DNA from: Pirellula staleyi DSM 6068
GTDB lineage: Bacteria; Planctomycetota; Planctomycetia; Pirellulales; Pirellulaceae
Reading direction: 5' to 3'
Length of the DNA: 32,000 nucleotides
Assembly (NCBI GenBank): GCA_000025185.1
Contig: CP001848.1
Location: 4,860,001-4,892,000 of the forward strand
Of this stretch, positions 125 to 28,396 are shown piece by piece. Position numbers and translations under genes: made by a program. Under the pieces are notes generated by a model that had not been told where the DNA came from, did not search any database, and saw nothing but the letters and a program-made list of their open reading frames with translations. The first letter of the stretch is position 1, and every line of letters begins with the position of its first letter.

Positions 125-989
125 CTAGAGCCAGTTATTGACTTTGTCTGTAGATTTTTGCGAGGAGTATGGTGAGGAAGGCGAGCCAGTGGAAGTTGGT
201 GAGCGTGACGGTGAGTCTCTCATAATCACGCGCGAGACGGCGGAAGCGACTCAGCCAACCAAAGGTGCGCTCAACAACCCAGCGGCGTGGCAATAGGACA
301 AAGCCTCGCTTGGTCTCGGTATGTTTTATAACTTGTAATCTTATCGAGGATGCTTCAGCCTGCTCGGCTGCTGCGGCGCCCGTATAGCCTTGATCGACGT
401 ACGCTATCTCCACGTTGCTGCCCGTCACCTCTTGCACTCTCTGCGAGAGGATGGCGACTTGGTCGCGGTCTTGCTCATTGGCTGCAGTGATGTAAACCGC
501 CAGCAGATTTCCCAGTGTATCGACGGCAATATTGGCCTTCGAACCCTTCTTTTTCTTCGCGCCGTCGTATCCCGCGCGGCCTCCACTTTCAGGAGTCGAT
601 TGCAGCGTTCGAGCATCCATGATCACAGCGGTTGGCTGTTCGTCACGTCCTTCCAAAAGACGCACCATCAGCCTGAGGTCTTGCGCAATTTCCTCAAAGA
701 CTCCCGCTTCGAACCAGCGTCGCATTTGTTGATAGACGGCCCGCCACGGAGGCATTTCATGCGGCAGGAAGTCCCACTGGATTCCTGTTTTCACCACGTA
801 GCGCATGGCGTTAAACTGGTCGCGCAGTGAATAGGCGCGCTGCGGCACATCCTCGCGCATGAGGCTTAAGTAAGGGAGCAGGAATTCCCACTCCGCATCC
901 GTTACGTCGCTGGGATACGACTTCCCTGTCGTGTGTTTCATCCCCTAACTACAGCAATTTCAAGCAGATAAGTCAATAACAGGCTCTAG
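125..989 (-). mobile_element. IS5-family insertion sequence (about 865 bp, single DDE transposase ORF)
   Basis: Terminal inverted repeats are ctagagccAgttattgactt (125-144) and the reverse complement of aagtcaataacAggctctag (970-989), matching at 19 of 20 positions. If the element ends are GAGCC.../...GGCTC (128-986), it is flanked by TA on both sides (126-127 and 987-988) inside a CTAG context, as is typical of IS5-family targets. It encloses the transposase ORF 135-941. Confidence 0.85.
135..941 (-). CDS. IS5-family DDE transposase (DUF4096-type N-terminal HTH plus DDE_Tnp_1 core)
   Basis: This is a 268-aa uninterrupted ORF. N-terminal motif: DAEWEFLLPYL...RYVVKTGIQWDFLP. C-terminal motif: RWVVERTFGWLSRFRRLARDYER. 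Both are characteristic of IS5/IS4-superfamily transposases. The ORF is bounded by the IRs. Confidence 0.9.
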   Translation of the reverse strand: MKHTTGKSYPSDVTDAEWEFLLPYLSLMREDVPQRAYSLRDQFNAMRYVVKTGIQWDFLPHEMPPWRAVYQQMRRWFEAGVFEEIAQDLRLMVRLLEGRDEQPTAVIMDARTLQSTPESGGRAGYDGAKKKKGSKANIAVDTLGNLLAVYITAANEQDRDQVAILSQRVQEVTGSNVEIAYVDQGYTGAAAAEQAEASSIRLQVIKHTETKRGFVLLPRRWVVERTFGWLSRFRRLARDYERLTVTLTNFHWLAFLTILLAKIYRQSQ

Positions 990-1971: not shown

Positions 1972-2774
1972 CCCCAGCCCGCACTTTTTGATGCGGCCAG
2001 CCGCCTGCATAAGGGAGCAGCGGGGCTTGTCAAGGAGAAATCGCCTTGGGCACTTCTTGCTTGCAGCTTCTCGCGTTGGAAGTGGACGCTAGGCGAGGCA
2101 TACGAAAATCGTTCAATGTGAACTTCGATCACATTAAGAGCCTGCCTCCACTAACCATGGCAACTACTTCAATGGAAGCCAACGAGGCTCCAGCTGCTTC
2201 TAGCTTCCACCGCTCTTTTGCCCAACCTAAGCACCGAACGACCTCGCCAGAAAAAACTCAAAGGTGAACGATTTCCACGAGGCCTCAGCCTCTCGTGACA
2301 GCTAATCGAGACCAAAGAGCACAAAGACAATCGCAAGCCATTACTAACAATGGACTTACATCTTTAACTGCAAACATTTATCCAGGGGCTAGAGCCTTGT
2401 GGTATTACACCGCAGTCGATTGAAAGCCTGAAGAGGGCAGGACTTCCGCTGGTTCGACCAGCTGGCCAAGTCAACTCGGCTGTTCCTCTAGTGTGAACTT
2501 CAATTCCGCTAGAAGTTTGAACATCGGAGTGCGTTAATTTTAAGCAGCGGCATGGAAGTCGCCCTAGAGCGATGCTACGCACACCACCTAGTAGACGTAC
2601 GTCTTGAAATTCTTTTCCCGCATATTCTCTTAAAAATGCTTGCGGGAACTAGGGCTTACCCGTTCGGCACACTCTTTGCTTTCGACGGGTTATGTACTGC
2701 GGATACGGCTACCCGCCCACCTGGAGTGGCGGGTGTTCGCTCGTGGGAAACCGCAGCCTCGTCTGGAAAGGAAT

Positions 2775-3710
2775 GTGATTGTGACTGTTTTTCGAAGTTG
2801 GAAAAAAGGGTTCACGCTGGTCGAACTGCTGGTGGTGATCGCCATCATTGGGGTGCTTGTGGCACTTCTGCTCCCTGCTGTTCAAGCAGCTCGCGAAGCG
2901 GCTCGTCGTTCTTCGTGCAGCAACAACCTCAAGCAATTGGGTCTCGCGCTCCACAACTACCACGACACGCTCGGTAGCTTCCCTTACGGCTACATGGAAG
3001 TTGGCACGCGTCTGAAGCGCAACTGCTGGTTCCAAGGGGTGCTCCCGTTCATGGAACAGACGGCGATGTACGACAAGTACTCTGCCCTCACGATCGAGTG
3101 GATCATGGACGTTCCTGACACGATCAAAGACATCCCCATCAAAACGATGAACTGCCCATCGGATGGTTCGGGGGGATCTAACTCACAGGGTGCCAACGGT
3201 GGAAACCGTGGTCCTGGCTACGGTGCTCAAGGCAATTATGTCGGCTGCACAGGCGATGGTTTGATGGTTTATGGCACTGCCAACGACGGACTCTTTTTTC
3301 AATTATCGAACAATACTTTCGGTAGCGTGATCGATGGAACGAGCAACTCGCTTGCTTTTGGTGAAGTGATCATTCGCGGCAAGAGCAACACCAATAGCGC
3401 TTGGGGTGACGGCGGATCGTACTGGGGTGGTGCTCGTTGGGGTGGCTATGGTTTCACGACCATGGAAGCTCCTAACACAACGATCGCCGACCAAGTTTAC
3501 CTCTGCAAGTCGACCACTTGGAAAGGTGCCCCTTGCACCTCGATTACGTCGTCCGACACGCAGCGCAACTTCCTTCGCAGCTACCATCCTGCTGGTGCTC
3601 AAGTCGCACTGATCGACGGTAGTACACGCTTTATCTCGAATACTATCAACATCACCACCTATCGCGCTCTAGGTACGATCAACGGTGGCGAAACCTTGGG
3701 TGAATACTAA
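2775..3710 (+). CDS. DUF1559 domain protein with prepilin-type N-terminal cleavage/methylation signal (type II secretion pseudopilin-like)
   Basis: N-terminal motif: [56 protein letters not shown]-terminal motif: [20 protein letters not shown]. The 2640 start in the ORF track adds about 45 implausible residues. GTG at 2775 (or 2781) follows the purine-rich ggaaagga and places the class III signal near the N-terminus. The stop position is certain; the start is approximate. Confidence 0.88.
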
Positions 3711-14004: not shown

Positions 14005-15270
14005 ATGAATCGCTCGTCTGGCACCTCAGAAATCCTCCCTTTTTGCGAAACGGTGGAGATTTCGGGGCACATCATCGACAGTTTGCTCCTCCCCAAAGTG
14101 CTCGATCTGATCACTGCCGCCGGGGGTGCATTTCAGATCCGCGACATCACCGTGGGACAGGCTCGCTCCGACGCAAGTTTCGCAAGGATCGAGGTTTCAG
14201 CAGCCTCGAAAGAGCGTCTCGAGCAGATTCTGGCTGCCATCGCCGACCATGGCGCAACAGCCATCCATCAGCACGACGCACGCCTCGTTCCGGCTGATAT
14301 TGCAGCCGCATTTCCCGAGGGATTCTATGCCACCACGAATCAGCAAACGGAAATCCGTATCGCTGGAAAGTGGCTGAACGTCGACAAGCAGGAAATGGAC
14401 TGCGGAATCGTCGTCGCCCCCGACCTGCAATCCGCCGCATGCCGTGCCATGACAGAAATCAACATCGGTGACCTCGTGGTGGTTGGCCATGTGGGGGTGC
14501 GTGTCCATCCGGTTGAACGGAACGCTCGCAAGCATGGCTTTGAGTTCATGAACAGCCCCGTTTCGACAGAAAAACCCAAAGGGGTTGCGATCCGTCAGAT
14601 TGCCGAGGAACTCGTACGTGCCCGGCGCGAGCATGGCCAAACGCTTGTCGTCGGTGGGCCTGCCATCGTCCACACCGGAAGTGCCGAGCACCTCTCCAGC
14701 CTGATAAGACGAGGCTATGTCAACAAACTCTTTGCAGGCAATGCACTGGCAACTCATGATATCGAGCAAGCTTTGTTTGGCACGAGCCTGGGCGTAAGAC
14801 TCGACTGCGGCGATATTGTTGAAGCTGGCCACGAGCATCATTTAAGGTCCATCAACCGCATACGCCGCTGGGGAGGAATTAAGGCTGCTGTCGATGGCGG
14901 ATATCTTAAAAGCGGCATCATGTATGAATGTATTAAGAACAAAATTGAATACATTCTCGCGGGCAGCATTCGCGATGATGGGCCACTCCCTGAAGTGATC
15001 ACCGATACGCTGGAAGCACAGCAGGCCATGCGGCGTGGGATCGCTGGCGTTTCTTTTTGCTTAATGGTCGCCACTACACTCCACTCCATCGCCGTTGGCA
15101 ATCTACTACCGGCCTGGGTCAAAGTAGTTTGCGTCGACATCAATCCTTCGACAGTGATTAAGCTTGCCGATCGTGGATCGTTCCAAACCGTGGGACTCGT
15201 CACCGATGTGGAACCATTTTTCCGGGCATTAGTCGGTGAAATTGACCGAATCGAGAGGGAGACACCATGA
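14005..15270 (+). CDS. TIGR00300 / LOR-SDH-domain protein, putative archaeal-type ornithine cyclodeaminase (AgrE/ArgZ C-terminal-half-like)
   Basis: ATG 14005 is preceded by aaggag (13993-13998). The 421-aa ORF starts ...VEISGHIIDSLLLPKVLDLITAAGGAFQI, and its C-terminal half is Rossmann-like (LVVGGPAIVHTG...ILAGSIRDDGPLPEV). This matches my recollection of the TIGR00300 family. Confidence 0.72.
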   Translation: MNRSSGTSEILPFCETVEISGHIIDSLLLPKVLDLITAAGGAFQIRDITVGQARSDASFARIEVSAASKERLEQILAAIADHGATAIHQHDARLVPADIAAAFPEGFYATTNQQTEIRIAGKWLNVDKQEMDCGIVVAPDLQSAACRAMTEINIGDLVVVGHVGVRVHPVERNARKHGFEFMNSPVSTEKPKGVAIRQIAEELVRARREHGQTLVVGGPAIVHTGSAEHLSSLIRRGYVNKLFAGNALATHDIEQALFGTSLGVRLDCGDIVEAGHEHHLRSINRIRRWGGIKAAVDGGYLKSGIMYECIKNKIEYILAGSIRDDGPLPEVITDTLEAQQAMRRGIAGVSFCLMVATTLHSIAVGNLLPAWVKVVCVDINPSTVIKLADRGSFQTVGLVTDVEPFFRALVGEIDRIERETP

Positions 15271-16142
15271 ACGAATCTCGCCCCCTCTTCGCCCCGCCTC
15301 GCATCCTTATGTGCTCTCCCGAATACTTTGGTATTGAATATGAAATCAATCCCTGGATGAGCCGCTCGCGTCAAGCAGATCGTCAACTCGCACTTCTGCA
15401 ATGGCATGGCTTGGCCGACATGCTGGAGTCGCTGGGAGTTATGATTGAACGCCTTCATCCTGTTGCGAAATTACCTGATTTAGTTTTCACTGCGAATGCT
15501 GCTTTAATCTTTAAGAAGAAAGCGGTTCTTTCACACTTTAAGCATACTGAACGACAGCGTGAAGAGCCACTTTTTCACGACTGGCTTACACAACATGGTT
15601 TTGAGGTCTTATGTCTTCCGGAAGATCATTTTTTTGAAGGGGCAGGTGATGCCCTTTTTGTAGGCGATACCCTTTATGCCGGGTATCGCATCCGAAGTGA
15701 TGTTCGAAGTGAACAGTTGATCGCCGCCTGGCTTGGTTGCCGAGTCCTTGCCGTCGAACTCGTCGACCCTTATTTTTATCATTTAGATACCTGCTTCTGT
15801 CCGCTCTCGACCGATTCGGCGATCTTCTATCCGGGCGCTTTTGATACCTACGGTATCGAAGTGCTGCAAAGCTCCATTCCCCTCTTAATTCCTGTTCGCG
15901 AGGAGGAGGCAAGAGCATTTGCCTGCAATGCAGTGGTGGTCGGAAAGCATGTCATCACCAATACGGGAGCACCTCAACTGCAACGCGACTTGCGAAACGC
16001 AGGCTTCACGCCTCACGAAACTCCGCTGTCGGAGTTTGTTAAAGCAGGGGGGAGTGCCAAGTGTCTCACGCTGAGGCTCGACGGCGAAAATGCGGCGGCT
16101 TGGCGGGAATCGCCAGCGATCTCGCAGCCTGTTTCCCCGTAA
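15267..16142 (+). CDS. guanidino-group-modifying enzyme fold protein (amidinotransferase/DDAH superfamily), putative arginine dihydrolase
   Basis: ATGA overlaps the upstream stop (15267-15270). Motifs: ILMCSPEYFGIEYEINPWM, FEGAGDAL, and YHLDTCFCPL. The C-terminal GGSAKCLTLRL carries the catalytic-type Cys. Confidence 0.8.
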   Translation: MNESRPLFAPPRILMCSPEYFGIEYEINPWMSRSRQADRQLALLQWHGLADMLESLGVMIERLHPVAKLPDLVFTANAALIFKKKAVLSHFKHTERQREEPLFHDWLTQHGFEVLCLPEDHFFEGAGDALFVGDTLYAGYRIRSDVRSEQLIAAWLGCRVLAVELVDPYFYHLDTCFCPLSTDSAIFYPGAFDTYGIEVLQSSIPLLIPVREEEARAFACNAVVVGKHVITNTGAPQLQRDLRNAGFTPHETPLSEFVKAGGSAKCLTLRLDGENAAAWRESPAISQPVSP

Positions 16143-19296: not shown

Positions 19297-20567
19297 ACTT
19301 AAGCAAACAATTCTTTGATGACCTTGCCACCGTTGGCGATCTTCATCGGACGGCCGCTCTTGCTCGTGAACGTCGTTTCCAGCGAGATCCCCAGCGCCTT
19401 GCAGACCGTTGCCATCACATCTTGCGACGTGTATGGCTCCGTCTCTACGCTTGTCCCATCTGCATTGGTCGAGCCCACGCCAAGGCCACCCTTCATGCCG
19501 GCACCACCCATCACCACGCTCCACGAACGAGCCCAGTGATCGCGGCCTGCACCGCCATTAATACGAGGGGTGCGGCTGAACTCGCCCATCCAAATGATCG
19601 CTGTATCTTCCAGCAAACCACGCTGTTCGAGGTCTTCCACCAGGGCGCTCATCGCGCGGTCCAGAACGGGAAGCTTCTGGTCGGCCAGCGTCGTGAAGAT
19701 GTTCGCGTGGTTGTCCCAACCGCCGAAATCAACTTCCACAAACGGTACACCAGCTTCCACCAAACGGCGGGCCATTAAGCACCCGCGGCCAAAGCCGTCG
19801 TTCCCGTAACGCTCTTGGACTTCCTTCGGTTCCTTCATCACTTTGAACGCTTCCATCTGACTGCTCGTCATCAGGTTCAAAGTCTTCTTCAGGATCTTCT
19901 GGTGGTCTTCCGAAGCGCTACCACGATTCTGCTTGATGAAGTTGTTTTCGATCATGTCCAAAGCAGCCATACGCTGCATCAGACGATCTTCTTTCAAACC
20001 CATCTCGAGGTTGCGAACCTGGCCGTTGCTGTTCACCACAAACGGCGACCAAGCCATGCCGAGGAAGCCAGGACCAACGCTGCCACCACCCACCGATACG
20101 AACGGAGGAATCTCGAGGTCGGCCCGTTGATCGATCAGTTCGTGCGACAGAACAGCACCGTAGCTCGGGTGTTCGATGTTCGGGTTCGGCACGTAGCCGG
20201 TGTGCATGTAGTAGCGGCCACGCATGTGATCCGCTTCACGCGTGCTCATCGAACGCACGATCGACAGCTTGTCCATCACCTTGGCGGTCATCGGCATGTG
20301 TTCGCTGATCTGCACGTCACCAGCGGTGCTGATCGGGCGAAACTGGCCACCGGTCGAAGCGCCGGGCTTCAGATCCCAAATGTCCATCGTGCTCGGACCG
20401 CCGCTCATCCACAGCAGAATCGCCGACTTCTTGTTCTTCTTCAGATCGGCAGCGTGAGCCATCAGGCTGTTGCCAAGCGTCAAGGCTGGAATCGTCATCG
20501 CGGACGCACCAGCCATATGACTCAGAAAATGACGGCGATTCATCCCTTCGGGAAGCAACAGACTCAT
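19297..20567. repeat. 1.27-kb dispersed repeat, copy A (coextensive with the DUF1501 CDS)
   Basis: It aligns to 24282-25552 at a constant offset of 4985 with 18 mismatches and no indels, judged by eye. Confidence 0.95.
19299..20567 (-). CDS. DUF1501 domain protein (sulfatase-like fold) with twin-arginine signal, copy 1
   Basis: The Tat-type N-terminus is [31 protein letters not shown]. Motifs [20 protein letters not shown] and GRDHWARSW are typical of DUF1501. It lies immediately downstream of a DUF1549/DUF1553 gene, the canonical pairing. Confidence 0.92.
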
Positions 20568-20725
20568 GACAATGTCCCCAAGATCTCAACGGACGCGTGA
20601 ACTTACAGATAACGATTGGATCGAAAACTATTCACTTGAGCCACTGCTGGAACTCTTGGCTATTTCAGCGGGAACTTTGCAGAAGTTCCTGAAGAGTCTT
20701 GCGTGGCCTCTTAATCTCTAAACGC

Positions 20726-23161
20726 TCAATGATCTAAAATGAACTCATTGGAATTCAAAAGTGCCCACCAAATATCTTCAACAGCAGCGGCCGGATTGGG
20801 GCCTGCTGAGGCAAGCATCTTTTCAGCTGCTTCGAGCTCGCGTTTGCTTGGACGTCGCGACAAGGCTGCGAGGAACAAATGCTCGACCTTCTCTTGCGGC
20901 GACATTTTGCTTTCGACAACACTTCGCAGCAGACCTTCATCGCGGCTGCTCACGGCACGCTGCATCAGTTCGCCATTCATCATCGCCAGCGACTGGCTCA
21001 TGCTGCCGTTGAAATTGGTTTCCTCTTCTGCGTCGTCGGTCGCCATGTTCCGCTGGAACTGAGCGAGCCAATCGCGCCGAGCAAGTTCAACCTGCGATTG
21101 ACCACCGCTCGACTTCCGCAACTGTGCGGCAATCAGGAGCGACTGGTAAACCTCTTCAGCCTGCATTTGGCGGGCGTAGTAGTGACTGAAGAGTGGAACC
21201 GTTCCAGCCTCGGGAGCATCGACGAGGTTACTGGCGGTGATCTTACTTGACCGCTGGAACGGATCACTGAGGGTGATCCAGCGAATCAGCATTTTCAAAT
21301 CGTGACCACTACGAATGAACTCGTCAGAGAGTCGCTCGAGTAGTTCCGGATGCGTTCCGCTGGCAGCGGCGATGATCTCGGCCTGCTCGGCTTCACTATC
21401 AGCGAGGCGAATGTTCGCGGGATCGAGACTGTTGGGCAGAGCTGCTTGGGGCTGCGACTTGGCGACTGGCTTGTCGGCCAGCGGCACCATGTCGTCGATC
21501 GGGCGGGTGAATCCGTAGCCAAAGAAATGGCTCCAGACACGATTGACCGTGGCTCGCGAGAATTGCTTGCTGGTGACAACTAATCGAGCGAGTTCAGCAC
21601 GACGACGAACCTCGCTGACGAGACCACTGGGGTCGACTTTCGAACCATCGAGGTATTCGGGATAGGCTGCCTTGAGCAAACCGTTGGGAGCCTGGTAGTA
21701 GACTTCGGCTTCGTCGGTGTTGCCACTGCTGCTCACGAAATCGGCATCGACAACGGCTGGCCTGCCCCCGATTTTCGTCAAGCGTGCCTGACGGAAGAAG
21801 GCGTTCATCGACCAATATTGCTGCTGTGTGAAATCGTGTGCTGGGTGATGATGGCACTGCGCACATTGCAGCTGATGCCCGAGAAATACTCGCGAAACTC
21901 GCGCGGTGGCCAGTGTTCCATCACCATCGAGGCTGTCGAGCATGAAGTTCACGGCACCATTGAACTTTTCGCTCCCTGGCTCGCCGGTTCCTTCGGCTGT
22001 AATCAATTCAAAGGCAATCTTGTCGTACGATTTGTTTTTGGCAATCGCATCGCGCAGGTAGAGTTCAAGCCCCTCACGACTCGCAGGACCTTCATCGTCG
22101 CTACCGGTGCTGCGACCAATCAGTGCGGTGGCAAAAATCGTCGCCCAGTAGCGAGAGTATTCATCGCGATACTCCTCAGCCGCGAGCAGACGATCGACTA
22201 GCGCGGCCGACTTGTTTGGCGACTTATCGGCCAGGTGCGTTTCGAGTTCTTTCACGGTCGGAATGCGGCCGAGCAGACGCAGAAAGACGCGCCGGCAGTA
22301 TTCAGCTTCCGTGGCCGTAGGGGAAGGTTCGACTCGATTGGCTTTCCAGGCAGCATCCACGGTTGTGTTGACGAACGAAATCACTTCACCAAGCGACGAT
22401 GGAGAAGCAGCAGGGGGTGGAACGAAGGTTGGATTCTCGAGCGTTTCACTCTGCTGAGCAGGATTGGCCGAAGCAATTTGTGGCGGGCCGTTATCAACCG
22501 TGCCGGGATTCATTCGACCGGGATTCGACGAGCGATCAGGACCGTTTGACGAATTTTTTGTGGACGAATCGCTGGGGGAGTTTGCTAGTTGTGGCTGATT
22601 GGTGCTGCGCTGCGGACGCGACTTGTCGCCCGACTTGACGACTGCAGACTTCTCGCCACCGAGTTTTTCCGTACCCGACTTGTTACCACCACCTGCCACC
22701 GAATTTTCCGAGGGCTGCGATAGTCCCCACCAGGCCACGCCAACAGCAACCAACGCAATAGCTGCCGAAAGGGTGAGAACTGGGACGTAGCTGGTTTTTC
22801 GCGATCGAACGCGAGTCGTGCGGATGGCCGGGGCCACTTGATCAGGCGCGGCGATAGCCTCGGGCTGCGACACCGTGCTGGGAGCGATCGCCATAGCGGG
22901 TACGCTGACCGGCGGTGCCACGAGTGGCGGAGCGATGGGCTGTCCACTCGCACTGAGCGAAGCAGCCACCATGCTGGACATACCAGCCGCGCTTGTCAGG
23001 CCAGCCGCGTTTGTCAGGCCAGCTGAACTGCTCGACTTGGGCGATGCGCCCCGCGCAGCCCACGCCTGGAGAATCCGCGCGGTGAGATCCGGCGGAGTTC
23101 GGTCTGCCAGGATTTCCTCCAGGCAGGCATCCAGGATGGGGTTGTCACGGTCCGGCGTCAT
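20726..23161 (-). CDS. membrane-anchored DUF1549/DUF1553 protein with an anti-sigma-like cytoplasmic N-terminus
   Basis: In this 811-aa ORF, the N-terminal approx. 40 aa (MTPDRDNPILDACLEEILADRTPPDLTARILQAWAA) resemble anti-sigma factor N-domains. A single TM helix follows (YVPVLTLSAAIALVAVGVAWWGL), then a long S/P/N/G-rich linker. The DUF1549-type motif is EAEYCRRVFLRLLGRIPTVKELE. The DUF1553-type motifs are FLGHQLQCAQCHHHP...YWSMNAFF and the C-terminal WWALLNSNEFILDH. Confidence 0.88.
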   Translation of the reverse strand: MTPDRDNPILDACLEEILADRTPPDLTARILQAWAARGASPKSSSSAGLTNAAGLTSAAGMSSMVAASLSASGQPIAPPLVAPPVSVPAMAIAPSTVSQPEAIAAPDQVAPAIRTTRVRSRKTSYVPVLTLSAAIALVAVGVAWWGLSQPSENSVAGGGNKSGTEKLGGEKSAVVKSGDKSRPQRSTNQPQLANSPSDSSTKNSSNGPDRSSNPGRMNPGTVDNGPPQIASANPAQQSETLENPTFVPPPAASPSSLGEVISFVNTTVDAAWKANRVEPSPTATEAEYCRRVFLRLLGRIPTVKELETHLADKSPNKSAALVDRLLAAEEYRDEYSRYWATIFATALIGRSTGSDDEGPASREGLELYLRDAIAKNKSYDKIAFELITAEGTGEPGSEKFNGAVNFMLDSLDGDGTLATARVSRVFLGHQLQCAQCHHHPAHDFTQQQYWSMNAFFRQARLTKIGGRPAVVDADFVSSSGNTDEAEVYYQAPNGLLKAAYPEYLDGSKVDPSGLVSEVRRRAELARLVVTSKQFSRATVNRVWSHFFGYGFTRPIDDMVPLADKPVAKSQPQAALPNSLDPANIRLADSEAEQAEIIAAASGTHPELLERLSDEFIRSGHDLKMLIRWITLSDPFQRSSKITASNLVDAPEAGTVPLFSHYYARQMQAEEVYQSLLIAAQLRKSSGGQSQVELARRDWLAQFQRNMATDDAEEETNFNGSMSQSLAMMNGELMQRAVSSRDEGLLRSVVESKMSPQEKVEHLFLAALSRRPSKRELEAAEKMLASAGPNPAAAVEDIWWALLNSNEFILDH
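22983..23018 (-). repeat. 18-bp tandem repeat (2 full copies plus a partial) in the low-complexity region
   Basis: ccagccgcgcttgtcagg (22983-23000) is followed by ccagccgcgtttgtcagg (23001-23018) and then ccagctg. It encodes the AGLTNAAGLTSAAG stretch. Confidence 0.8.
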
Positions 23162-23253
23162 GGCTCAAAGTTCTCGCTTTTGCTTTTTAGTTGCTTTGCA
23201 GTGAAACACCGCAATGAAACATCATTGTGGATTTCACGATTCAGGTTGATTTA

Positions 23254-23847
23254 TCAGCTCGAGCGACGTTTCGAACTAGCAGAGTTTTCGGTCGCTGCCG
23301 TCTCTGCTGGTCCCGGTCGCTCGTCACTCGTTAATTTATTCTCGACACACGTTTTAAGCTGCTGTTTGGCACGCTGCATTAAATTTTTTGCGCCATGCTC
23401 GGTGATTTCGAGGGCCGTCGCGATTTCATCTCGCGAACGATCACTTCGAAATCGCAACTCCAGAGCCATGCGAGCCCTCTCTGTCAGCCCCTTCAGGCAT
23501 TCCCGCAGAGCATCGAGAGCCGCCTCACCCGAGTCGTTCCCGGCCCAAGTGGTCCAGGTTCGATCGATCTCCTCCACCGCCTCCATTACCACCACTTTGC
23601 CAGCTCGGCGCTGATGGGAAATGAACAGGTTGAGGGCAATCTTCCGCAGGTAGGCTGCCGTCGCAGCAGCATTGATCTCTTGAAACGGACGCTGCAAAAC
23701 ATGCAGGAACGTCTCTTGCGTCAAATCCTCCGCGAGGGCCGACTCGCATCCCAAGGCTCGCAAATAGCGCCAAATCCCCGCCTGATACGTCTTGATCAGA
23801 TCGGCAGGGTTGAAGCTGGTCGCGGATGGCTCGGGGGGAGTCGTCAT
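23254..23847 (-). CDS. ECF-type sigma-70 family RNA polymerase sigma factor
   Basis: The 197-aa ORF has a region 2 (IWRYLRALGCESALAEDLTQETFLHVL) and a region 4 HTH (LRFRSDRSRDEIATALEITEHGAKNLMQRAKQQLKTC). It lies 92 nt upstream of the anti-sigma-like gene. Confidence 0.92.
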   Translation of the reverse strand: MTTPPEPSATSFNPADLIKTYQAGIWRYLRALGCESALAEDLTQETFLHVLQRPFQEINAAATAAYLRKIALNLFISHQRRAGKVVVMEAVEEIDRTWTTWAGNDSGEAALDALRECLKGLTERARMALELRFRSDRSRDEIATALEITEHGAKNLMQRAKQQLKTCVENKLTSDERPGPAETAATENSASSKRRSS

Positions 23848-24281: not shown

Positions 24282-25552
24282 ACTTAAGCAAACAATTCTT
24301 TGATGACCTTGCCGCCATTGGCGATCTTCATCGGGCGGCCGCTCTTGCTCGTGAACGTCGTTTCCAGCGAGATCCCCAGCGCCTTGCAGACCGTTGCCAT
24401 CACATCTTGCGATGTGTAAGGCTCCGTCTCCACGCTTGTCCCATCTGCATTGGTCGAGCCCACGCCAAGGCCACCCTTCATACCGGCACCACCCATCACC
24501 ACGCTCCACGAACGAGCCCAGTGATCGCGGCCTGCACCGCCGTTAATACGAGGAGTGCGGCTGAACTCGCCCATCCAAATGATCGCTGTATCTTCCAGCA
24601 AACCACGCTGTTCGAGGTCTTCCACCAGGGCGCTCATCGCGCGGTCCAGAACGGGAAGCTTCTGGTCGGCCAGCGTCGTGAAGATGTTCGCGTGGTTGTC
24701 CCAACCGCCGAAGTCAACTTCCACAAACGGTACACCAGCTTCCACCAAACGGCGGGCCATCAAGCACCCGCGCCCAAAGCCGTCGTTCCCGTAACGCTCT
24801 TGGACTTCCTTCGGTTCCTTCATCACTTTGAACGCTTCCATCTGACTGCTCGTCATCAGGTTCAAAGTCTTCTTCAGGATCTTCTGGTGGTCTTCCGAAG
24901 CGCTACCACGATTCTGCTTGATGAAGTTGTTTTCGATCATGTCCAAAGCAGCCATACGCTGCATCAGACGATCTTCCTTCAAACCCATCTCGAGGTTGCG
25001 AACCTGGCCGTTGCTGTTCACCACAAACGGCGACCAGGCCATGCCGAGGAAGCCAGGACCAACGCTGCCACCACCCACCGATACGAACGGAGGAATCTCG
25101 AGGTCGGCCCGTTGATCGATCAGTTCGTGCGACAGAACAGCACCGTAGCTCGGGTGTTCGATGTTCGGGTTCGGCACGTAGCCGGTGTGCATGTAGTAGC
25201 GGCCACGCATGTGATCCGCTTCACGCGTGCTCATCGAACGCACGATCGAAAGCTTGTCCATCACCTTGGCGGTCATCGGCATGTGTTCGCTGATCTGCAC
25301 GTCACCAGCCGTGCTGATCGGGCGGAACTGGCCACCGGTCGAAGCGCCGGGCTTCAGATCCCAAATGTCCATCGTGCTCGGGCCGCCGCTCATCCACAGC
25401 AGAATCGCCGACTTCTTGTTCTTCTTCAGATCGGCAGCGTGAGCCATCAGGCTGTTGCCAAGCGTCAAGGCTGGAATCGTCATCGCGGACGCACCAGCCA
25501 TATGACTCAGAAAATGACGGCGATTCATCCCTTCGGGAAGCAACAGACTCAT
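24282..25552. repeat. 1.27-kb dispersed repeat, copy B (coextensive with the DUF1501 CDS)
   Basis: See copy A. The flanks become unrelated immediately outside the start codon and 2 nt beyond the stop codon. Confidence 0.95.
24284..25552 (-). CDS. DUF1501 domain protein with twin-arginine signal, copy 2 (protein identical to copy 1)
   Basis: From ATG 25552 ([15 protein letters not shown]...) the 422-aa product is identical to that of 19299-20567. The ORF-track extension to 25858 overlaps the upstream gene and is not protein-like. Confidence 0.92.
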
Positions 25553-25688
25553 AAGAAGACTCCGGTAATTCTGGTGGCAGTCGCCGGTAAAGTGACAGCT
25601 GCCTTGGATACTTATTGACTTGAAACTTGTTAGACGTAGTTGACTTGTTTGTCGATGCCGAGCCCCTTTGCAGAGCTCTTCACACCGC

Positions 25689-27443
25689 TTAGTGCTGCAG
25701 GATGAACTCGTTGGTGTTGAGCACCACCCAGAACAGATCTTGAAGTGCAGCGGCTGTATCCCCCTGACGCCAGGTGAGGATTTGATTAGCTGCACGCAGT
25801 TCGGTGTCCGTTGGATTTCGAGCAAGAGCCGCTTGGAACAGATACTCGATCTTCGCACCCGGCTTAAGATTGCTGGTGGCGATGGTCGACAGGAAGCTTC
25901 CCTTATCGAGCTTCGTGGCGTCTTTGATCAGATCGCCATTGAACATCATCAAAGCTTGGGGAATTGTGCCGTTGAAGGTTGTCGATTCGTCACCTTCGTC
26001 GGTACCGAAAGCGATCGTGAACTGACGCATCCATTCGGCTTTGATCTTCTCTTGGTCTTCGTAGTTGCCACGGGTCTTGTGCGCCTGCGTTGCTACGAGA
26101 AGCGATTCATACAGCTGTTCTGCCTGCATCTGACGCAGGTAGAAGTGAGTGAACTTAGGAGTTTCGCCCATCAGCGGATCGTCGGATTTGTTCTTCGAGG
26201 TCACCACGCTGCTCAGCGAATAGGCTTCCGACAGCGTGATCCAGCGGATCAGTTCCTTGAGATCGAAGCTGTTTTGACGAACTTGCTGGCCGAGATAGTC
26301 GAGCAGCACGGGATGCGTCGGGGCATTGTGCGGGCCGAGATCGTCGATTGGCTTGGTGAAACCATAGCCCAGGAAGTGCCCCCACATGCGGTTGGCAATC
26401 GTCTTATCCATGAACTCCGACTTGATGATCAGCTTGGCCAACTCGGTGCGGCGATCGTTGTCTTCGAGATAGCCACTCTTGCTGATCTCGCTGCCATCGA
26501 CGAACACAGGGAAGGCACTCGAGAGAATGCCGTTGCGGAGTTCGTAGTAAAGGATCGCTTCATTAGGATCAGCGCCGGCACCTTCGCCCGCGAAATCTTG
26601 GTTCATCAGCTTGGCGCCAGCGATGTCGCGAGTGCCCGGGACGAATTCGCGAAGTGCACGCGTTTGACGGAAAAAGGCGTTGAATTCCCAGAATTTCTGC
26701 TGTTTCCATTCGTTGAACGGATGGTTGTGGCACTGGGTGCATTGAATCTGCAGCCCCAGGAAGTTCTTGGCCGTCATGGCAGTGGCTTGAGCAGCGTTTT
26801 CGTCGAGCTTCATCACCAAGTAGTTGGTGGCGCCGTTGAAACCTTCACCACCTGGAGCAGTCGAGCCAGTAGCCGAAACAAGCTCATACACCATGCGGTC
26901 GTAAGGCTTGTTGCGAGCAAACGAATCGCGGAGGAATTTCTGCATCCCCGCGCGGCTGATCAGTGTGTCGTCTTCGAGACCACCGTTGCGACCAATCAGA
27001 ATGTTGGTCCAAATCGTGGTCCAGTTGCGGGCGTAATCTTCGGTGTAGGACTCGTCGTAGAGCAGCTTCGAAACCAGCTTCAGTTTCTTGTCGGTTTCGC
27101 GGCTGGCGAGAAAATCGCGGAGTTCTTGGACCGAGGGAATCCGGCCGAGGATGTCGAGGTAGACACGTCGGCACCACTCGCCATCGGTGGCAGGTGGCGA
27201 AGGAGTGAGCTGGTTATCGGTCCAGACTTGCCGGATCTGTTCGTTGATGAACTTCACCTGAGGCATGCCGTAGTCAGGAACAACCGGCCCCGTGGCCGAT
27301 GGTTTGGCGGGCGTTGTCGAGGTGGTTGCCTCTTGCCCCAGCAAAACGCTGGTTGGGGCGGAGAGTAGCAAGGCACATCCCGCCACGAACGTGGCGATAG
27401 GTGTGCGAATCCAGTGGGCGAGAGAAGTTGTCATCTTGGTCAT
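25689..27443 (-). CDS. secreted DUF1549/DUF1553 protein (no anti-sigma domain)
   Basis: The Sec-type signal is ...[26 protein letters not shown]. The DUF1549 motif is [24 protein letters not shown]. The DUF1553 motifs are [16 protein letters not shown]...FWEFNAFF and the C-terminal [14 protein letters not shown]. The start is ambiguous: ATG 27443 was chosen, with TTG 27452 and ATG 27434 as alternatives. Confidence 0.88.
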
Positions 27444-28054
27444 CCTGATCAACTAGCTACCTGACAAGCGTGCTCGACAAGGGACTTACAACAAAGCACG
27501 CTGGCGGTCGTGATGGTGGCCGCACAGAGTGCTCGGTATTTGATGTGTTGGTTATCCGACCAGCCAGCGTTACTAGCAGTAAACTCAGAGTATTTTCGGC
27601 AGCAGGAAACGAACGAATGTCGCTCCCAGCCAACCGAAGTAGAGAAGTCCATCGCTATCTGTAACCTGAAACGTACGTTGCGCTCGGTTGTACTCGCGAA
27701 AGCCCGAATATTTGCCAGCTACTACCGAAAACCGGTACTGCATGGATGCCGCGTGCGACGCTTGCCGCAGGAAGTCCATGGAGAGCCTCGAGAACTTCGC
27801 GCGAGTCGTCCTCAATTGCATCGATAACCGAAAACTTATTTGACGACGTAGCTCAAGAGATTGCAAGCACTTGGAGCAAATTTCACCCTCCCAGGAGGTG
27901 CGTACTTCTGCTGCCGCCTGGAGGGGCAAACGTCGCGGCAAAAAAAGATTTTTTCTTCTTTTCCTGACTACCACCCACAACGCTACTTGTTGATCCCGAA
28001 GTCAGCGGGTGGCATTTGTTCGATTTTGATACAATTGTTGCGAAATTGAACATC

Positions 28055-28370
28055 AAAATAAAACAGGCGAGGTCGCTCGAGCTTCTGTCTCGAGCGCACT
28101 CGCCTGTTGGTTGAAAGTGCTCTTTGGGCAGGGTCTGCACTTTCTCGTCTTAGTCGTGGGCAACCATCGCTTTCGCTGCCAACGACCCAGTTTTGCTTGT
28201 TTTTGGCTAACTGGAGCCCAAAAATACGTTCCGCTTCTTTGTTTCCGCGATCCTCTGCGAGCCTCTCTTAATCCGGCCCCAGCACAAACTTCTCTGTTTT
28301 CGCGAGGATCGCGGTTAGCATCGCTGCGGCGAGCGAATGATCAGTCAGGTTCCAGCTAACTGCTCATGTT
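28055..28370 (-). ncRNA. candidate approx. 315-nt non-coding transcript (sigma-54 promoter to intrinsic terminator)
   Basis: It is bounded by the sigma-54 motif and the 28062-28108 terminator. There is no ORF longer than about 17 codons with an ATG on the minus strand. Internal long-range pairing: ccgcgatcctc (28245-28255) with gaggatcgcgg (28304-28314), plus gcga/tcgc. There is also a gctaac/gttagc hairpin near the 5' end. This is purely predictive. Confidence 0.3.
28062..28108 (-). terminator. strong minus-strand intrinsic terminator
   Basis: The outer 10-bp stem is aacaggcgag (28062-28071) with ctcgcctgtt (28099-28108). The inner 8-bp stem is cgctcgag (28074-28081) with ctcgagcg (28089-28096). 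On the minus strand the hairpin is followed by ttttattttgatg. There is no T-tract on the + strand. Confidence 0.8.
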
Positions 28371-28380
28371 AGCAACTATA

Positions 28381-28396
28381 TGCAAGCGGCGTGCCA
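28381..28396 (-). promoter_or_regulatory. sigma-54 (RpoN) -24/-12 promoter motif
   Basis: The minus strand reads tTGGCACgccgcTTGCAt, that is TGGCAC-N5-TTGCA with canonical spacing. TGGCAC is at 28391-28396 and TTGCA at 28381-28385. It is intergenic, 43 nt downstream of the ABC transporter stop. I checked the TGGCAC/GTGCCA occurrences I could find by eye and none of the others had TTGC at N5. The predicted TSS is near 28370. Confidence 0.5.

Follow-up and report, generated by a model that had tools for sequence, protein, structure and literature searches.

A conserved candidate sigma-54-dependent small RNA gene of Pirellula staleyi and a family of related units in Pirellulales

The 32,000-nucleotide (nt) stretch of the Pirellula staleyi DSM 6068 genome analysed here (contig CP001848.1, positions 4,860,001 to 4,892,000; hereafter the window) contains, on its minus strand, a 986-nt intergenic region that opens with a sigma-54 promoter motif and holds a strong terminator, with no evident gene between them. 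What does this interval encode? A first-pass annotation of the DNA had called it an orphan unit and offered three readings: a sigma-54-dependent small RNA (sRNA), a 3' untranslated region (UTR)-type sRNA of the upstream ABC operon, or the long leader of a downstream DUF1553/DUF1501 gene pair. Our comparison with relatives supports the first. Promoter, non-coding body and terminator are conserved together as one unit that includes a covarying 5' stem-loop; the unit recurs in 55 distinct sequences, its promoter core is kept and two of its hairpins covary. The interval is very probably an independent sigma-54-dependent sRNA gene, and it is probable that such a gene acts in trans through repeated motifs. 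The RNA family is new, not described before, and confined so far to Pirellulales (Planctomycetota). The features on which the argument turns are the following.

28396-28381, minus strand: sigma-54 (RpoN) promoter TGGCACgccgcTTGCA, an exact TGGCAC-N5-TTGCA
28396-28391 and 28385-28381, minus strand: the -24 box TGGCAC and the -12 box TTGCA of this promoter, with a 5-nt spacer between them
28370-28055, minus strand: predicted sRNA of about 316 nt, a divergent member of its family
28365-28339, minus strand: 5' stem-loop P1, a 10-bp stem with loop CUGGAAC (28355-28349), starting 5 nt past the predicted RNA start
28108-28055, minus strand: intrinsic terminator, stem 28108-28062 followed by the U-tract UUUUAUUUU ending at 28055
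28052-28017, minus-strand letters: two TGT-N11-ACA dyads in tandem, TGTTCAATTTCGCAACA and TGTATCAAAATCGAACA, at a spacing of 19 bp; a DNA element and putative protein-binding site

The promoter motif agrees with the RpoN consensus in both boxes and in their spacing, as first claimed: GG and GC stand 10 nt apart in a TGGCAC-N5-TTGCW context, and from this position the RNA is predicted to start at about 28370 on the minus strand. Elsewhere in the window TGGCACN5TTGCW has no exact match. From dinucleotide shuffles 0.02 matches are expected, and 2 of 100 shuffles contain any match at all, in line with the earlier estimate of a chance expectation well below one and no second instance. When one mismatch was allowed, the window gave 2 matches against 1.2 expected and specificity was gone; the motif taken alone is weak evidence, because its one-mismatch matches occur near chance level.

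Relatives were collected by protein synteny and by a sequence pattern. Orthologues of the ABC exporter in species-representative genomes and public assemblies led to loci from Pirellulales metagenome-assembled genomes, and the unit lay downstream of the ABC gene in seven of these loci (L001, L002, L004, L005, L081, L082 and L085), with a sigma-54 box, about 260-290 nt containing GGGGCCGG...AGAGGC, and a terminator with the base CAGGCGAG/CUCGCCUG. With the PSCyt2/PSD1 protein encoded downstream, which is better conserved, as bait, the unit was found in the complete genomes of two cultured strains, Anatilimnocola aggregata ETAA8 and Anatilimnocola sp. NA78, whose genus belongs to the Pirellulaceae within Pirellulales. 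The A. aggregata copy (L172:3186-3475; CP036274.1, about 657,298-657,587) lies upstream of ETAA8_05100 and has its promoter TGGCACGCCACTTGCT at L172 position 3186 and its terminator at about 3430-3475, with a predicted RNA of about 265 nt at CP036274.1 about 657,324-657,587 on the plus strand; the copy of strain NA78 (L173:3273-3563; CP187419.1) lies upstream of the ETAA8_05100 orthologue. Metagenomes were scanned with a pattern that contains no promoter bases, GGGGCCGG-N5-8-AGAGGC-N145-175-CTCGCCTG. The scan matched 85 contigs, 55 of them real copies with a T-rich tail after CTCGCCTG and the other 30 chance hits in GC-rich DNA with no T-tract. After removal of duplicates, 53 distinct RNAs of 226-316 nt remained, which with the two Anatilimnocola copies give 55 distinct sequences; these at least 55 sequences are spread across many JGI and ENA metagenome datasets of environmental Pirellulales. 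The unit is therefore no orphan but a member of a family. A hold-out nhmmer profile, for which 50 members were used and the window copy and L081/L082 set aside, had its sole window match at 28298-28055 on the minus strand (E = 1.3e-4), and the window copy carries all of the family signature blocks as well as the tandem TGT-N11-ACA.

Conservation of the motif and the hairpin in related genomes had been named as a check that could refute the proposal, and both were conserved together with the RNA body. GG-N10-GC stands at the equivalent place in all nine copies found by protein synteny alone (L001, L002, L004, L005, L081, L082, L085, L172 and L173), and the boxes of these copies include the sigma-54 sequences TTGGCGCGCCCTTTGCA, TGGCACGTCAGTTGCA and CGGCACGCCTCTTGCT. 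Among the true metagenome copies with enough upstream sequence, 51 of 52 have the consensus.GG[CT][AG][CT]-N5-[TC]TGC at the expected distance, and the remaining one has TGGCAC-N5-GTGCA, with a variant -12 box. Only 1 of the 30 chance hits of the scan pattern has a sigma-54 consensus. In the position matrix of the family, GG and GC are present in all copies, TGGCACG and TTGC are near-invariant, the spacer varies freely and no conservation was seen upstream of -30. Invariant GG and GC, a variable spacer and a blank upstream region, found here in orthologous loci, are the pattern expected from selection on RpoN binding. Scored with the same matrix, a sigma-54-like site with one consensus mismatch at 2665-2680 on the plus strand of the window (CGGCACACTCTTTGCT) reaches 19.3 bits; it sits at the start of the open reading frame (ORF) 2640-3710 of a DUF1559/N-terminal-methylation gene, whose true start is probably further downstream.

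At the other end of the unit, the strong terminator with an interrupted stem and a T-tract that had been placed about 310 nt downstream of the promoter was also recovered. Its stem consists of 8 + 8 bp with a 2x2 internal loop (-33.2 kcal/mol, z = -8.1), and because of this loop a simple terminator scan did not pick up the hairpin at 28108-28062. On the plus strand no T-tract follows the hairpin. For the covariation analysis, 18 nt per arm were joined by a dummy loop in 44 distinct rows. In the upper stem, 10 of 18 pairs were changed on both sides (146 cells); pairing was kept in 91% of cells compared with 26-46% when the partner was slid, and none of 500 shuffles reached the observed score. 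The family thus has a GC-rich hairpin followed by a U-tract, with compensatory changes in relatives. The base of the stem behaves differently: the lower 8 bp, CAGGCGAG/CUCGCCUG (28099-28106 and 28064-28071 in the window), never vary in sequence, whereas the upper stem covaries freely. The 3' arm of this lower stem belonged to the search pattern, and its invariance also holds in the ten copies found by synteny. It is conceivable that the invariant part is a recognition site for a protein or a pairing partner.

A second covarying hairpin lies at the 5' end. The P1 stem-loop was compared in five synteny-found members, namely the window copy, those of L081 and L085, and both Anatilimnocola copies. 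In every one of them a conserved YYGGAAC loop tops a 10-bp stem that starts at +6 relative to the predicted RNA start, which supports the predicted transcription start; 9 of its 10 pairs were changed on both sides, and 96% of cells were paired compared with 25-57% when the arms were slid. Folding was also asymmetric between the strands. Compared with shuffles, the whole window unit gave z = -6.0 for the minus and -5.3 for the plus strand, and the family bodies without their terminators gave a mean z of -2.2 in the sense and -1.3 in the antisense direction, the sense value being the lower in 44 of 53 members.

The gene that follows the unit bears on whether the RNA is a gene of its own.

27452-25689, minus strand: PSCyt2/PSD1 (DUF1549/DUF1553) gene, identified by Pfam; syntenic partner of the RNA and outside it

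On the minus strand the window reads CNNM/CBS, the ABC exporter (ORF 30418-28439, ABC_membrane and ABC_tran in Pfam), the intergenic region, PSCyt2/PSD1, DUF1501, an extracytoplasmic function (ECF) sigma factor and a second PSCyt2/PSD1 and DUF1501 pair. The first PSCyt2/PSD1 gene starts 603 nt past the RNA end. An orthologue of its product (55-91% amino acid identity) is encoded on the same strand, 230-760 nt downstream of the RNA, in 36 of the 52 related loci compared, and DUF1501, the ECF sigma factor and the second gene pair usually follow it there. The fixed position of the RNA before this operon suggests that RNA and operon belong to one physiological response.

The same synteny also underlies the best surviving alternative, in which the interval is a cis-acting leader or attenuator: the sigma-54 site would be a second, conditional promoter of the operon, read-through of the terminator would control the operon and the short RNA would be a by-product. 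The PSCyt2/PSD1 orthologue stays downstream even where the upstream gene differs, and the interrupted U-tract of many members would suit such control. Against this, loci that lack a co-oriented downstream gene still carry the RNA and the dyads, as is the case in the L124/L126/L153/L155 group and in L100, where the next gene is convergent, and in L116 the arginine decarboxylase gene speA replaces the PSCyt2 operon downstream of the RNA. Between RNA and operon the spacer shows little conservation and no constant length, the terminator stem is long (16-18 bp) and GC-rich, and no antiterminator pairing was found, with no systematic search of alternative folds. The operon also appears to have its own candidate sigma-70-like promoter, TTGCAR-N17-TAnAAT, at a variable distance from the RNA, as well as leader boxes near its start codon. 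A riboswitch or attenuator would be always contiguous with its gene, with no promoter in between and with mutually exclusive folds; the first two are not seen here, and no exclusive folds emerged, alternative folds having had no systematic search. An operon promoter of its own at variable distance, together with an RNA that occurs without a co-oriented gene, makes a separate transcription unit more likely than a leader. Of the earlier suggestion that the interval begins a very long leader for the DUF1553/DUF1501 pair, the synteny link is real and the leader itself we consider improbable.

Several details of the operon start were recorded alongside. The candidate operon promoter of the window lies at 27838-27866 on the minus strand and reads TTGCAA-N17-TCAAAT, where relatives have TTGCAG-N17-TACAAT; in the window clade the operon 5' UTR would then be about 400 nt. 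The conserved leader boxes GAGTAC and CGTTTCAGG near the operon start are found in the window at 27690-27695 and 27665-27673, minus strand. The window holds two PSCyt2/PSD1 and DUF1501 pairs (19299-23847 and 24284-27452, minus strand) with the ECF sigma factor gene at 23847-23254 between them, an arrangement conserved in L085, L113, L120, L138 and L146. The DUF1501 ORF as called mechanically (24284-25858) overlaps the PSCyt2/PSD1 end; since its Pfam match begins at residue 149, the true start probably lies further downstream. In the Anatilimnocola strains, MCH and ATP-grasp genes follow the operon instead of the ECF sigma factor.

Directly behind the terminator lies a further conserved element. 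Its 36 bp start 11-13 nt after CTCGCCTG and consist of two 17-bp dyads, TGTWKC-AWWWT-GMWACA, at a spacing of exactly 19 bp. The tandem dyad is unique in the window, where 0 are expected. At least one exact TGT-N11-ACA occurs at the fixed offset past the terminator in 46 of 52 members. In 23 of these a second site is present at a spacing of exactly 19 bp, and 358 kb of fetched loci contained no tandem other than these 23 at the post-terminator spot. The dyads are more degenerate in loci without the PSCyt2 operon. We considered whether the palindrome could be an RNA hairpin; of the 19 positions in its arms only 8-19 pair, complementarity is often poor, and two direct copies of a 17-bp dyad describe it better. 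Since the dyad halves are often poorly complementary, the conservation is at the DNA level and indicates a protein site. As an operator of a sigma-70 promoter at fixed distance the dyads hold only in the L001 clade, and this idea was dropped. A scan of 716 kb with the family promoter matrix for a second sigma-54 promoter of the PSCyt2 operon gave only five weak, scattered matches. In their 6-5-6 geometry and tandem arrangement the dyads resemble the sites of NtrC-type activators. The simplest reading of the dyads is that they would form an enhancer about 300 bp downstream of the promoter it serves. Alternatively, the element may be a LysR-type operator: TGT-N11-ACA also fits the T-N11-A box of LysR-type regulators, and the one paper found to use the term TGT-N11-ACA applies it to a LysR-type regulator.

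The dyads, clearly a signal at the DNA level and one that fits the LysR-type box, raise a further alternative to an sRNA gene, namely that the whole interval is a DNA-level regulatory region for the downstream operon whose promoter-like and terminator-like parts make no stable RNA. The invariant sequence of the lower terminator stem would agree with this. Pairing-preserving covariation in two separate hairpins is, however, the signature of selection on RNA structure and not on DNA that binds protein, and the G-U pairs and strand-asymmetric folding favour a sense transcript. The sigma-54 core is invariant, and outside one clade no sigma-70 promoter stands at a fixed distance from the dyads. We regard this alternative as very unlikely.

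The gene upstream is less constant than the gene downstream. Because the ABC stop codon (TAG, 28441-28439) and the promoter motif are separated by only 42 nt on the minus strand, and because 19 of the 52 related loci compared have an ABC orthologue next to the RNA on its upstream side, the RNA could be a 3' UTR-type sRNA of the ABC operon, made from an embedded promoter or by processing of the ABC mRNA. In the other 33 loci no ABC orthologue was detected upstream; the place is taken by glnA in L095 and L117 (L095:4907-6346, minus strand; L117:900-2339, plus strand), by a divergent SMR transporter gene in both Anatilimnocola strains, and by others elsewhere. Where an ABC orthologue is present, the gap between its stop codon and the RNA ranges from 40 to about 800 nt, and the ABC orthologues in L003, L083, L084 and L086 have no such RNA after them. 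Exact look-ups of the ABC proteins of the window and of A. aggregata returned no entry for either. The second of the original readings is largely refuted by the synteny, and we think it hardly credible. Least credible of all is a small protein: mechanical ORFs of 17-85 codons do overlap the interval, including the 17-codon ATG ORF MLTAILAKTEKFVLGPD and ORFs of 26-85 amino acids that start with TTG or GTG or lie on the plus strand, but across the 53 members no ORF is conserved in frame, start position or sequence and one member has no ORF at all, the distances between conserved blocks spread evenly over the three residues modulo 3, and Pfam had no match in the two interval-overlapping ORFs scanned, all in keeping with the first assessment that the interval has no credible ORF and none with an ATG start beyond 17 codons.

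The body of the RNA was then described in terms of its folds and its recurring motifs, most of them predicted from single sequences or from profile alignment.

28314-28245, minus strand: long-range domain, an 11+4 bp helix (28314-28300 with 28260-28245) that encloses ACAGAGAAG (28297-28289) and unit 2
28280-28261, minus strand: unit 2, the family signature GGGGCCGG-AUUAAG-AGAGGC, in which GGGCC is predicted to pair with GGCUC and to leave a purine-rich loop exposed
28246-28228, minus strand: purine-rich stretch GGAAACAAAGAAGCGGAAC, which by profile alignment matches family unit 3 (GGAAC-GAGAAGA-GGC), loosely in this divergent copy
28188-28152, minus strand: central hairpin GUCGU-GGCAGC ... GUUGCC-ACGAC, present in the minimum-free-energy and centroid folds and variable across the family
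28144-28113, minus strand: pre-terminator hairpin GAAAGUGC ... GCACUUUC, from predicted folds

From 5' to 3', the family order is a stem-loop (often with GGAAC or GAAGAGGC within its loop), unit 1, unit 2, variable hairpins, unit 3, a YUUYC hairpin and the terminator. Unit 1 is GGGGCCGG-n-ACAGAGAAGAGGC, unit 2 is GGGGCCGG-n4-6-GAAGAGGC and unit 3 is GGAAC-n-GAGAAGA-n-GGC. The purine motif with consensus GAAGAGGC occurs in 2-5 copies per RNA, two of them preceded by GGGGCCGG, and AGAGG is found at least twice in 47 of 55 RNAs. The predicted unpaired probability is 0.70 for the purine core, compared with 0.36 for the whole RNA and 0.29 for GGGGCCGG. The unit 2 signature was found in all family members and has one match in the window, where 0 are expected. 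About 10 nt ahead of the terminator, sequences across the family again show a 3' arm of pyrimidines (YUUYC). The 11+4 bp long-range helix, part of the original description, could be traced both in the sequence and in the minimum-free-energy fold, and it is identical in L081/L082. In one subgroup, RNAalifold suggests a possible pairing between a 5' GUUCC and the unit 3 GGAAC; this pairing has no covariation.

How such a unit could work can be proposed from these parts. Transcription would need RpoN holoenzyme and an ATP-dependent enhancer-binding protein, and because of the need for such a protein the RNA would be made only on a specific signal. The activator would bind the tandem TGT-N11-ACA past the terminator, about 300 bp downstream of the promoter, and reach it through a DNA loop. 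The RNA product would work in trans through its repeated, exposed purine boxes. One possibility, which we put forward tentatively, is that it serves as a decoy that titrates an RNA-binding regulator off similar purine-rich ribosome-binding regions; that it instead pairs with pyrimidine-rich RNA targets seems somewhat doubtful. The decoy is slightly preferred because the purine boxes resemble the ribosome-binding regions of the PSCyt2 genes, which have GAGAGGGA or GAAGAGGGG before the start codon. The complete picture of a promoter-RNA-terminator-enhancer module whose RNA is a multi-site decoy for a regulator of GAAGAGGC-type ribosome-binding regions is rather unlikely to be correct in every part. 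If it were, no such global circuit of post-transcriptional control would have been described in Planctomycetes before, and this one might be tied to nitrogen status. The sigma-54 promoter, the glnA gene upstream in one clade and the speA gene downstream in L116 (L116:7845-9770, minus strand) are hints of a link to nitrogen metabolism.

A number of observations weigh against a trans-acting sigma-54-dependent sRNA or against parts of the mechanism just proposed. RNA start, RNA end and RpoN dependence are predictions. The close synteny of RNA and PSCyt2 operon is just as compatible with action in cis, and the U-tract is interrupted in many family terminators (UUGCAUUUU) and might permit read-through. 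GGGGCCGG, AGAGGC and CTCGCCTG were fixed by the scan pattern, which makes their invariance in the metagenome set partly circular, and independent proof of the conservation of these blocks comes from the ten synteny-found copies only. The window copy itself scores weakly against the hold-out profile (14.5 bits), and with L081/L082 it is peripheral to the family: a helix replaces unit 1 and one canonical unit is left. Covariation among relatives was found in the terminator and the 5' hairpin; RNAalifold on the family-wide MAFFT alignment gave no consensus structure for the interior, because MAFFT aligns the variable hairpins poorly. A complement resembling GCCUCUUCUC was absent from the window and was not enriched in the downstream leaders. 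As to activation, an enumeration of 4-mer dyads with 2-13 nt spacers from -260 to -35 of the family promoters found nothing enriched or specific. The notion of a downstream enhancer comes from the position of the dyads, and the helical phasing between promoter and dyads is marginal (p about 0.05-0.06, uncorrected for relatedness). No rpoN or activator gene was found in the window or in any RNA-carrying locus examined, and the 32-kb window also contains no enhancer-binding protein, csrA or hfq gene. A related Pirellulaceae locus, L086, itself without the RNA, encodes a GAF-Sigma54_activat-HTH_8 protein, and when this activator was used as a tblastn query, neither the window nor any of the other loci fetched gave a match. 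For Planctomycetia, sigma-54 regulons that include NtrC/ZraR-type activators and csrA are predicted in a 2025 survey (PMC12316311), which refers to earlier work on Pirellula sp. strain 1.

Searches for known RNAs were made at several levels of stringency. Rfam 15 at gathering scores gave no match in the whole window. At E<=10 on the interval and the A. aggregata copy, and at E<=1 on four further members, only meaningless hits to the terminator hairpin were obtained. ARAGORN found no tRNA or tmRNA, and with Rfam and ARAGORN together no model of GlmY/GlmZ, Qrr, NrsZ, 6S RNA, RNase P or tmRNA matched the window copy. A full-text literature search found no paper on a sigma-54-dependent sRNA in Planctomycetes. 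New bacterial sRNA families are not rare; to our knowledge, regulatory RNAs of Planctomycetes are essentially unexplored.

In working principle the RNA would, by analogy, stand closest to CrcZ/CrcY of Pseudomonas (RF01675), and after them to GlmY, Qrr and NrsZ in promoter class and to CsrB/RsmZ in decoy architecture. CrcZ and CrcY are sigma-54-dependent RNAs of a few hundred nt with an intrinsic terminator, a repeated purine-rich single-stranded motif and a fixed genomic neighbour, and CrcZ is a decoy for a translational repressor (Hfq/Crc). The Pirellulales RNA shares the promoter class, the terminator, a repeated purine motif and a fixed neighbour, and would share the decoy role if our proposal holds. 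It differs in its motif, GAAGAGGC, often after GGGGCCGG, where the CrcZ box is an A-rich AAnAAnAA; in having no cbrB or other activator gene adjoining it; in belonging to another phylum; and in candidate activator sites that lie downstream of the gene, not upstream. With no Rfam match, no cbrB neighbour and another motif, it is not a member of RF01675.

The decoy architecture is shared with CsrB/CsrC and RsmX/Y/Z, in which short motifs resembling ribosome-binding regions are repeated in the loops of a structured, terminated RNA, an arrangement that is predicted here. GGA, the core of CsrA sites, is not enriched in the Pirellulales family (354 observed compared with 423 expected from shuffles) and is not conserved in unit 2. 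Membership among the CsrA decoys was dropped on this count and for want of an Rfam match: the lack of GGA enrichment means that the RNA is not a classical CsrA decoy. The Csr/Rsm RNAs are, as far as we know, not sigma-54-dependent.

Promoter class is what the RNA has in common with the sigma-54 sRNAs GlmY/GlmZ, Qrr1-5 and NrsZ, the last of which is also built of repeated modules. Size and motifs differ, and there is no Rfam match. These sRNAs are controlled by NtrC-family activators at dyads (TGTC-N10-GACA for GlrR, TTGCA-N3-TGCAA for LuxO). Their activator sites lie upstream, whereas here the only conserved dyads are about 300 bp downstream. A precedent for downstream sites is FlrC of Vibrio cholerae, whose sites downstream of the flaA and flgK starts are downstream enhancers of sigma-54 promoters. 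The present candidate sites are likewise downstream of the start, and they are tandem 6-5-6 dyads as in NtrC sites. The known downstream enhancers, in contrast, lie within about 100 bp of the start, inside the transcribed leader, and the candidate sites here lie beyond the RNA's own terminator. We know of no sRNA gene with an enhancer behind its own terminator, and it is in this arrangement that the unit may be novel. The absence of a model match, the different motif and the lack of GGA enrichment together place the RNA outside the CrcZ, Qrr, GlmY and CsrB families.

The family has sharply defined boundaries and offers a handle on sigma-54 targets in the Pirellulales lineage. Its presence in the cultured A. 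aggregata ETAA8, which has a complete genome, opens it to direct experiment. For the large and functionally obscure PSCyt/PSD-DUF1501 gene families it gives an initial lead on how one conserved member is regulated, and it also offers a possible example of an enhancer located behind the terminator of the gene that it serves.

The rest of the window is planctomycete in content, with its PSCyt2/PSD1 and DUF1501 pairs, a DUF1559/N-methyl protein and an ECF sigma factor. An IS4/IS5-type DDE transposase gene lies at the window edge (135-941, minus strand). At 14005-16142 on the plus strand, an ArgZ-like arginine dihydrolase gene stands beside a DDAH/amidinotransferase-like gene; the pair may form an arginine catabolism module and appears unrelated to the RNA unit.

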